Shown: positions 7,606-8,333 of the stretch, in pieces
Numbering within the stretch: the stretch's first letter is position 1
How the letters are laid out: every line of letters begins with the position of its first letter
IMG/VR virus record: IMGVR_UViG_2879765931_000006
Direction: 5' to 3' (one strand)
DNA length: 22,395 bases
Source: a virus
Lineage: Duplodnaviria > Heunggongvirae > Uroviricota > Caudoviricetes
Made by a program: the position numbers and the translations under genes
The notes under the pieces: model-generated
Seen by the model: the letters and a program-made list of their open reading frames with translations, nothing else
Database searches by the model: none
Told to the model about the DNA's origin: nothing

Positions 7606-7995
7606 ATGATGTTTCTGAAACAGGATACGTTTAATTATGAAAAACAGTCCGTGGTGCTCAGTGAGCTGTCCGGGCTGCAGAGAATTGAATATCTGACGTT
7701 TGTTCAGCAGCGAACGGCAAAGTTTGATGCACAGGAGGGAGAACTGCCGGAGGCTGAACGACAGATTGCTTTTCTGCGTATGGGAATGGATATCAATGCC
7801 TGGCTGGTTTCCCGCTCACTGTGGAATGCTGAGCAGTCTCAGGATGTTGAGACGCTTTGCGCATCCATTATGACAACATGGTCGTATGATGCGCTGGGCG
7901 CGGGGGCGGAGAGGGTTCTGTCGCTGAGCGGTATGGGGACCATTGAGAATGCCGGGGATGATGATCATGAGGCGCTGACGCCGGAAAAGTCCTGA
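7606..7995 (+). CDS. G: lambda-like tail assembly chaperone G
   Basis: MMFLKQDTF... parallels lambda gpG (MFLKTESFEH...); RBS GGAG 3-6 nt upstream; ends PEKS-stop at 7993-7995. Confidence 0.85.
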   Translation: MMFLKQDTFNYEKQSVVLSELSGLQRIEYLTFVQQRTAKFDAQEGELPEAERQIAFLRMGMDINAWLVSRSLWNAEQSQDVETLCASIMTTWSYDALGAGAERVLSLSGMGTIENAGDDDHEALTPEKS

Positions 7996-8333
7996 CGCGG
8001 GAAATGCAGTTTGTCATGCGGCTTGCCCGGGAGTTCCGGCGGGCAGACTGGCGGCGGATGCTGTCGGATATGTCGGCCACTGAGCTTGGTGAGTGGGGCG
8101 ATTATTTCCGGATGCAGAGCTTCAGTGATGTGTGGATGGATGCGCAGTTTGCCTCGCTGAAGGCATTGATCGTGAGAATGGTGTCCGGCAGCAGCGATGC
8201 TGCGGTGGCTGATTTCAGCCTTTTACCGGAAGAGAACGGGATACCGGAGCGAACGGACGAAGAACTGATGCATCTTGGGGAAGGTATTTCCGGAGGTGTG
8301 CGTTATGGACCAGATAGCCAACCTGGTCATTGA
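7606..8333 (+). CDS. T: tail assembly chaperone G-T fusion (gpGT) by -1 frameshift near the end of G
   Basis: The -1 frame is open from 7971 to 8333; the G frame stops at 7995; shift must occur within 7971-7992, where GGAAAAG (7983-7989) is the only slippery-like run. T-frame product matches the lambda G-T arrangement. Confidence 0.6.

Follow-up and report, generated by a model that had tools for sequence, protein, structure and literature searches.

The locus analysed here raises a simple question: is the variant heptamer at the junction of its tail genes G and T a working programmed −1 ribosomal frameshift site, or is it a symptom of the decay of the prophage that carries it? The window, as we call the whole stretch of 22,395 nucleotides, is a defective Shigella/E. 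coli prophage, a remnant. In phage lambda the G/G-T pair is reportedly produced by a −1 frameshift at G GGA AAG (Levin, Hendrix and Casjens 1993; Xu, Hendrix and Duda 2004, 2013, 2014); the window has A where lambda has G at the third base, and thus reads G GAA AAG (GGAAAAG). We favour, with a probability of about 87%, the view that the heptamer is an ordinary site of programmed −1 ribosomal frameshifting in a lambda-type pair of tail assembly chaperones.

Frames, domains and the slippery heptamer

The features on which the argument turns are as follows.

6807-7550, tail tube gene V (PF16461 and Big_2 domains)
7609..7995, + strand, gene G, lambda-type tail assembly chaperone (128 aa, stop TGA 7993-7995)
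7968..7970, + strand, TGA that closes the −1 (T) frame and bounds the frameshift interval on its 5' side
7969..7972, + strand, GAGG, resembling a Shine-Dalgarno sequence, 10 nt before the heptamer
7983..7989, + strand, slippery heptamer G GAA AAG (P-site Glu GAA, A-site Lys AAG), putative −1 site
7989..8333, + strand, T-frame segment of the predicted G-T fusion (114 aa after the shift), beginning VLTREMQFVMRLAREF
8004..8006, + strand, ATG taken as the T start by automatic annotation, probably an internal Met of the fusion
8305-11043, tape measure gene H (TMP_2 and Tape_meas_lam_C domains)

The overlapping G and T frames sit between the tube gene and the tape measure gene, and this V-G-T-H order is the classical arrangement. 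The G ORF matches PF06894 (Phage_TAC_2) with E=2.7e-40 and 137.5 bits (cutoff 27), over profile positions 1-121 of 126. Its start is likely the ATG at 7609 and not the TTG at 7591 of the ORF list: read from that ATG the protein begins MFLK, as do all homologues, and a GGAG lies 6 nt upstream. When both frames are translated, the −1 (T) frame opens at 7971 and extends to 8333, with its stop at 8331-8333, and it matches PF06223 (Phage_tail_T) over the full profile (1-73 of 73, E=5e-15). The T domain homologue thus lies downstream of G and, as we verified, in the −1 frame relative to it.

Since the T-frame TGA at 7968-7970 and the G-frame TGA at 7993-7995 bound the passage from one frame to the other, a −1 shift must fall within 7971-7992, an overlap of 22 nt; here sequence and translations agree with the original prediction, which had confined the shift to the same interval. 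The G frame ends (within 7940-8010) GAT GAT CAT GAG GCG CTG ACG CCG GAA AAG TCC TGA, and a scripted scan of this frame for N NNZ ZZN sites returned none in 7971-7992 beyond G GAA AAG, so that the earlier description of GGAAAAG at 7983-7989 as the sole slippery-like motif of the overlap holds. The motif as such is not enriched, with six copies in the window against 3.15 expected and six reached in nine of 100 shuffles; its significance therefore comes from frame, position and conservation, not from mere presence. G GAA AAG also fails the strict X XXY YYZ pattern, bases 1-3 being G, G and A (bases 4-6 are AAA), and frameshift finders restricted to that pattern would miss it. Nevertheless, the in-frame A AAG (a Z_ZZN tetramer, A_AA.G) permits cognate re-pairing in the A site, and the site would work like an X XXY YYZ heptamer with one near-cognate P-site pair without being a strict member of the class.

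Compared with lambda, the window has homologous G (PF06894) and T (PF06223) domains, the same V-G-T-H order and −1 relation, the slip site in the same column with AAG in the A site and, as in lambda, no conserved downstream structure that we could find. The two differ in the third base of the heptamer, in the distance from the heptamer to the G stop (one codon in the window's lineage, five in lambda) and in the G protein itself, which is 31% identical to that of lambda. By gene location, gpG homologue, −1 T domain and conserved slippery site, the locus would accordingly class with the lambda-type G/G-T modules.

Between V and G, at 7570-7587, we also noted a GC-rich hairpin followed by a T run (GCCCCGGTTATCCGGGGC TTTTTGC), and the records of mEp460 and Ayreon annotate a rho-independent terminator at the homologous V-G intergenic spot. 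Such an element could reduce expression of G, T and H relative to the major tail protein V.

Conservation of the junction among relatives

A megablast of positions 7591-8333 against phage records retrieved 17 records at 96-97% identity, eight of which were examined: mEp460, Ayreon, Tritos, cdtI, PhiR55_1, HannyBb, phi458 and vB_EcoS-569R4. The last is a partial record; the other seven are complete phage genomes, unlike the window, which is a remnant, and most of the eight name an E. coli host. In all eight the junction, ACGCCGGAAAAGTCCTGA, is identical, the 22-nt overlap is the same and the T-frame TGA at its 5' limit is kept. Alignment of the G/T junction with relatives was the comparison that the original prediction had proposed, and GGAAAAG proved common to the phage records; this is the first of the two signs by which it would have recognised a normal variant, the second being a few per cent of −1 frameshifting in a reporter.

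The module is also very common, being present at 95% identity or more in 1,847 of 5,426 complete E. coli genomes. Even so, the frameshift goes unmarked in all eight close phage records and in the RefSeq E. coli annotation, where T is a separate CDS whose start, in the relatives, corresponds to ATG 8004 or to an ATG further along. G and T are thus split in two by annotation pipelines and in most of the phage records examined, with T read from an internal ATG.

Farther away, a tblastn search with the predicted fusion matched 186 phage records, and 11 of these, spread over the range of identity, were examined. They carry three heptamers, all of which fall in one column of the G alignment:

G GAA AAG: phi80, LLS, mEp213, mEp237 and Gifsy-2 (G 32-55% identical to that of the window)
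G GGA AAG: lambda, Turner, Stx2a_EH1535 and PhiR12_1
A AAA AAG: Stx2_95 and Stx1_131719

The five phages of the first group have heptamer, frame and column exactly as in the window. In phi80, LLS, mEp213 and mEp237 the G stop lies five codons past the heptamer, unlike the window, while Gifsy-2 shares with it both ACGCCGGAAAAGTCCTGA and a GAGG 10 nt upstream. Two of these records already describe the shift. The GenBank record of LLS (PQ299149), a plaque-forming phage (PMC12315714), gives a joined CDS together with a misc_feature that reads "minus-one programmed translational frameshift site GGAAAAG", and the record of Gifsy-2 labels T as "part of G+G' frameshift hybrid protein".

The sample was then widened by two scans for which an alignment of 12 G proteins served as seed; they contributed 48 loci from bacterial genomes and 80 viral contigs. 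Counting as a locus any G-like ORF that continues in the −1 frame for 60 codons or more, we obtained 131 loci with 83 distinct G-T sequences. Every one of the 131 has an NNNAAAG heptamer inside the overlap, which ranges from 22 to 82 nt: 112 have GGAAAAG, 17 GGGAAAG and two AAAAAAG. When G proteins are clustered at 80% identity, GGAAAAG is found in 15 of 18 lineages, GGGAAAG in two and AAAAAAG in one; the seeds were the window's own G protein and, in each scan, one or two short peptide patterns, so that the figure of 15 of 18 is indicative and not an unbiased census. Within the window's own G lineage GGAAAAG is identical in all 94 loci. Prophages with this heptamer span about ten other enterobacterial genera, their lineages including those of Serratia, Erwinia, Kluyvera, Buttiauxella, Citrobacter, Enterobacter, Yokenella and Symbiopectobacterium, among others. 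We also met lambda-like G genes, all with one and the same tblastn score, on short, often low-coverage contigs assigned to Kitasatospora, Oceanobacillus, Shewanella, Pseudoxanthomonas and other unrelated organisms, which look like lambda DNA contamination of the assemblies and not real prophages.

Three features of this survey go beyond what the protein requires. The Lys codon at the site is AAG in every surveyed locus (AAG makes up 24% of Lys codons in E. coli and 35% in lambda; PMC3296357). The base before GAA is always G, contributed by CCG, GCG, GTG or CTG, and one codon further upstream the third base varies freely. Finally, the P-site codon is GAA, GGA or AAA only, the A AAG and the purine at the first position of the heptamer being invariant in all 18 lineages. 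The invariant AAG, the invariant G before GAA and the restricted set of P-site codons together imply selection on nucleotides and not only on amino acids. The suggestion that the phage family uses a variant heptamer is vindicated, and more broadly than foreseen, since GGAAAAG is shared both at 96-97% DNA identity over G and T and by distant lineages (15 of 18). GGAAAAG is a widespread, already annotated and ordinary variant of the lambda G/G-T site, not a defect, and among the sampled relatives it is the textbook heptamer of lambda that looks like the minority form. As a routine member of a well-studied recoding system, the site in itself carries little biological weight.

The same comparison bears on whether a shift is needed at all. 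T is a separate CDS in RefSeq and in most of the phage records examined, several of which start it at ATG 8004, and it could on that account be thought to be made independently from this codon. To compare the proteins, fusions were built for 21 lineage representatives by a −1 shift after the AAG codon. In the window the predicted product has 127 + 114 = 241 aa and reads ...EALTPEK|VLTREMQFVMRLAREFRRADWR... The 21 fusions align without gaps over the junction, and the residues just past the shift are conserved, following the pattern ...[E/G/K]K | [V/A][L/F/W]xx E[L/M/R]xF[V/A/S]xxLARE[F/M]xRxDWR... Conservation of the T frame thus starts upstream of ATG 8004, directly at the heptamer. At the position of that ATG, by contrast, Leu or Arg is found in all but two of the 21 representatives, namely 19, and Met is confined to the window and cdtI, both of a single lineage. 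Independent initiation at ATG 8004 was rejected as a candidate for this lack of a conserved Met, and the upstream start of T-frame conservation makes it more unlikely still. In addition, the only Shine-Dalgarno-like bases near the ATG are a GGGA ending 2-3 nt before it, and the lambda T frame is reportedly expressed as a gpGT fusion via frameshifting (Levin et al. 1993, as cited in PMC3296357 and PMC5009743). We therefore regard a separately initiated T as very unlikely.

Proposed shift and its efficiency

Starting from the observed frames, homology, motif position and nucleotide-level conservation, we infer both that frameshifting occurs at G GAA AAG and how the tRNAs would pair there. Most ribosomes would read G and terminate at the TGA of 7993-7995, and a small fraction would slip by −1 at the heptamer and continue in the T frame to 8333, yielding the 241-aa fusion. 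The slip would most probably be a tandem one, of both A-site and P-site tRNAs. The A-site tRNA-Lys, whose anticodon mnm5s2UUU reads AAG and AAA, would move from AAG to AAA and be fully paired. The tRNA-Glu anticodon is 5'-UUC-3' with a modified U34; in the P site this tRNA would move from GAA to GGA, keeping G:C at the first and A:U at the third position, with a G·U in the middle. The pairing logic of the original prediction, in which tRNA-Glu on GAA must re-pair on GGA, was therefore correct. In lambda, the corresponding P-site tRNA-Gly would pass from GGA to GGG, placing the G·U at the wobble position and not in the middle as in the window.

Sharma et al. (2014, PMC4066793) found that, of the tetramers in E. 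coli, A_AA.G is by far the most prone to shift, and they concluded that cognate re-pairing in the A site is the main rule of bacterial −1 frameshifting. The E. coli IS elements and dnaX (A_AA.G, X_XXA_AAG) resemble the window in that tRNA-Lys passes from AAG to AAA (PMC4066793); they differ in that their sites usually have strong stimulators (a pseudoknot, a stem-loop or an upstream Shine-Dalgarno sequence) and high efficiency, and no such stimulator is evident in the window. These precedents make it conceivable that tRNA-Lys alone re-pairs, from AAG to AAA on A AAG, with the P-site Glu having no specific role: some IS elements rely by itself on A_AA.G, the E. coli tetramer of highest efficiency (PMC4066793), and A AAG is the only part of the heptamer that never varies over the 18 lineages. 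A slip confined to the A site would, however, leave the rest of the heptamer unaccounted for. The first base is G in 15 of 15 GGAAAAG lineages although four different codons supply it and neighbouring synonymous sites vary, and the P-site codons found (GAA, GGA and AAA) can each re-pair at −1 with at most one G·U, as expected if the P site matters. The invariance of the first G implies that P-site re-pairing matters and favours tandem over A-site-only slippage, which we consider unlikely.

A shift at the level of the transcript is far less probable again. There is an A run at the site on which RNA polymerase could slip to give a −1 mRNA. It comprises only four A's, and the lambda homologue has three at the same place; known bacterial transcriptional slippage sites need about 8-9 or more identical bases. 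We give this explanation next to no credence.

How often tandem slippage would occur can be gauged from lambda, where frameshift efficiency is about 4% (PMC3296357) and the molar ratio 30:1 (PMC5009743); by this likeness, a low efficiency of a few per cent is expected for the window. It could also be lower. Folding of 7990-8070 gave z = −0.39 against shuffles, and the 60 nt past the heptamer in the 21 representatives gave z values from −1.6 to +1.9, with only a weak RNAalifold consensus (−6.3 kcal/mol). On these z-scores and the weak consensus, a downstream stimulatory RNA structure was discarded as a conserved element. In the systematic E. coli study of Sharma et al. (2014, PMC4066793), which covered canonical heptamers and tetramers only, tetramers lacking a stimulator barely exceeded background; with no conserved downstream structure in the window either, the efficiency could be below the approximately 4% of lambda.

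Upstream of the heptamer, the GAGG at 7969..7972 is conserved in the cdtI-type lineage. The representatives of Gifsy-2, Symbiopectobacterium and Erwinia have it with identical spacing; most other lineages, lambda included, lack it. It is made up of a Glu codon, GAG, and the first base, G, of the next codon. We speculate that it might act as a weak, lineage-specific frameshift stimulator.

In the literature searched we found no published account or measurement of frameshifting at G GAA AAG. GGAAAAG is mentioned neither in the PRFect paper nor in the Atkins 2016 review, and changes at the middle P-site position are absent from the dnaX thermodynamic study.

The mnm5s2U34 modification of tRNA reportedly tunes the G:G-T ratio of lambda (Maynard et al. 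2012). Because at G GAA AAG the Glu (P-site) and Lys (A-site) tRNAs both carry mnm5s2U34, the ratio could be more sensitive to thiolation than that of lambda. We offer it as a tentative, on balance doubtful, proposal that G GAA AAG is the predominant G/T slip site of Enterobacterales and that it renders the G:G-T ratio more responsive to host thiolation and sulfur status than in lambda; if so, the choice of heptamer would be a tuned property and not a neutral variant.

State of the prophage

It remains to ask whether the condition of the prophage has touched the site. Outside the tail module, the features that bear on this are the following.

330-1169, IS3-family integrase-core ORF, upstream of Q
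1706-2401, antiterminator gene Q
3587-4783, − strand, IS110-family transposase
5046-5447, gene FI, with tail genes directly after it
19798-21549, − strand, IpaH-type type III effector, an E3 ligase (LRR_TTSS and NEL domains), at the end of the prophage tail region

Between Q and FI, where genes for lysis, terminase, portal, protease and capsid would be expected, none of these was identified, and the IS110-family transposase is the sole ORF identified by Pfam. The original prediction was thus right to call this a decaying prophage: no head genes were identified, IS-family ORFs are present, J is broken and H carries a deletion. It had suggested, as one alternative, that the G-T chaperone might no longer be made correctly. 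On such a view the heptamer would have arisen from G GGA AAG by mutation as the prophage decayed. The lack of identified lysis and head genes between Q and FI, the IS-family ORFs, the broken J and the deletion in H give that idea its footing. Against it, the junction is base for base that of seven complete phage records, the heptamer is invariant in all 94 loci of the lineage, and the Pfam matches of G and T are still full length. With the phage records carrying the very same G/T junction, the heptamer is not to be read as a sign of decay, and we judge its origin as a decay mutation highly improbable; a faulty G-T chaperone finds no support at this site. Expression of the late operon may, in this defective prophage, be absent altogether.

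The damage to J and H can be followed in some detail. J appears to be split into two overlapping ORFs (13418-16156 and 16131-16898), the first of which matches the gpJ Pfam domains, and this suggests a frameshift mutation near 16131-16156; in an E. coli O121 relative, J is annotated with an internal stop. Compared with the same O121 relative, H lacks about 300 nt (about 100 codons, in frame) at 8632-8639, where the BLAST segments overlap by 8 nt, an overlap that may correspond to a short direct repeat at the breakpoint. The H protein has 912 aa in the window and about 1018-1021 aa in cdtI and mEp460 (from CDS coordinates), and a working phage that carried the shortened H would be expected to have a shorter tail.

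As to provenance, an origin of the window in Shigella or enteroinvasive E. coli is suggested by the IpaH-type gene taken together with the G protein, which is 100% identical to Shigella flexneri copies, and with the best matches, which are in E. coli strains annotated with ipaHd.
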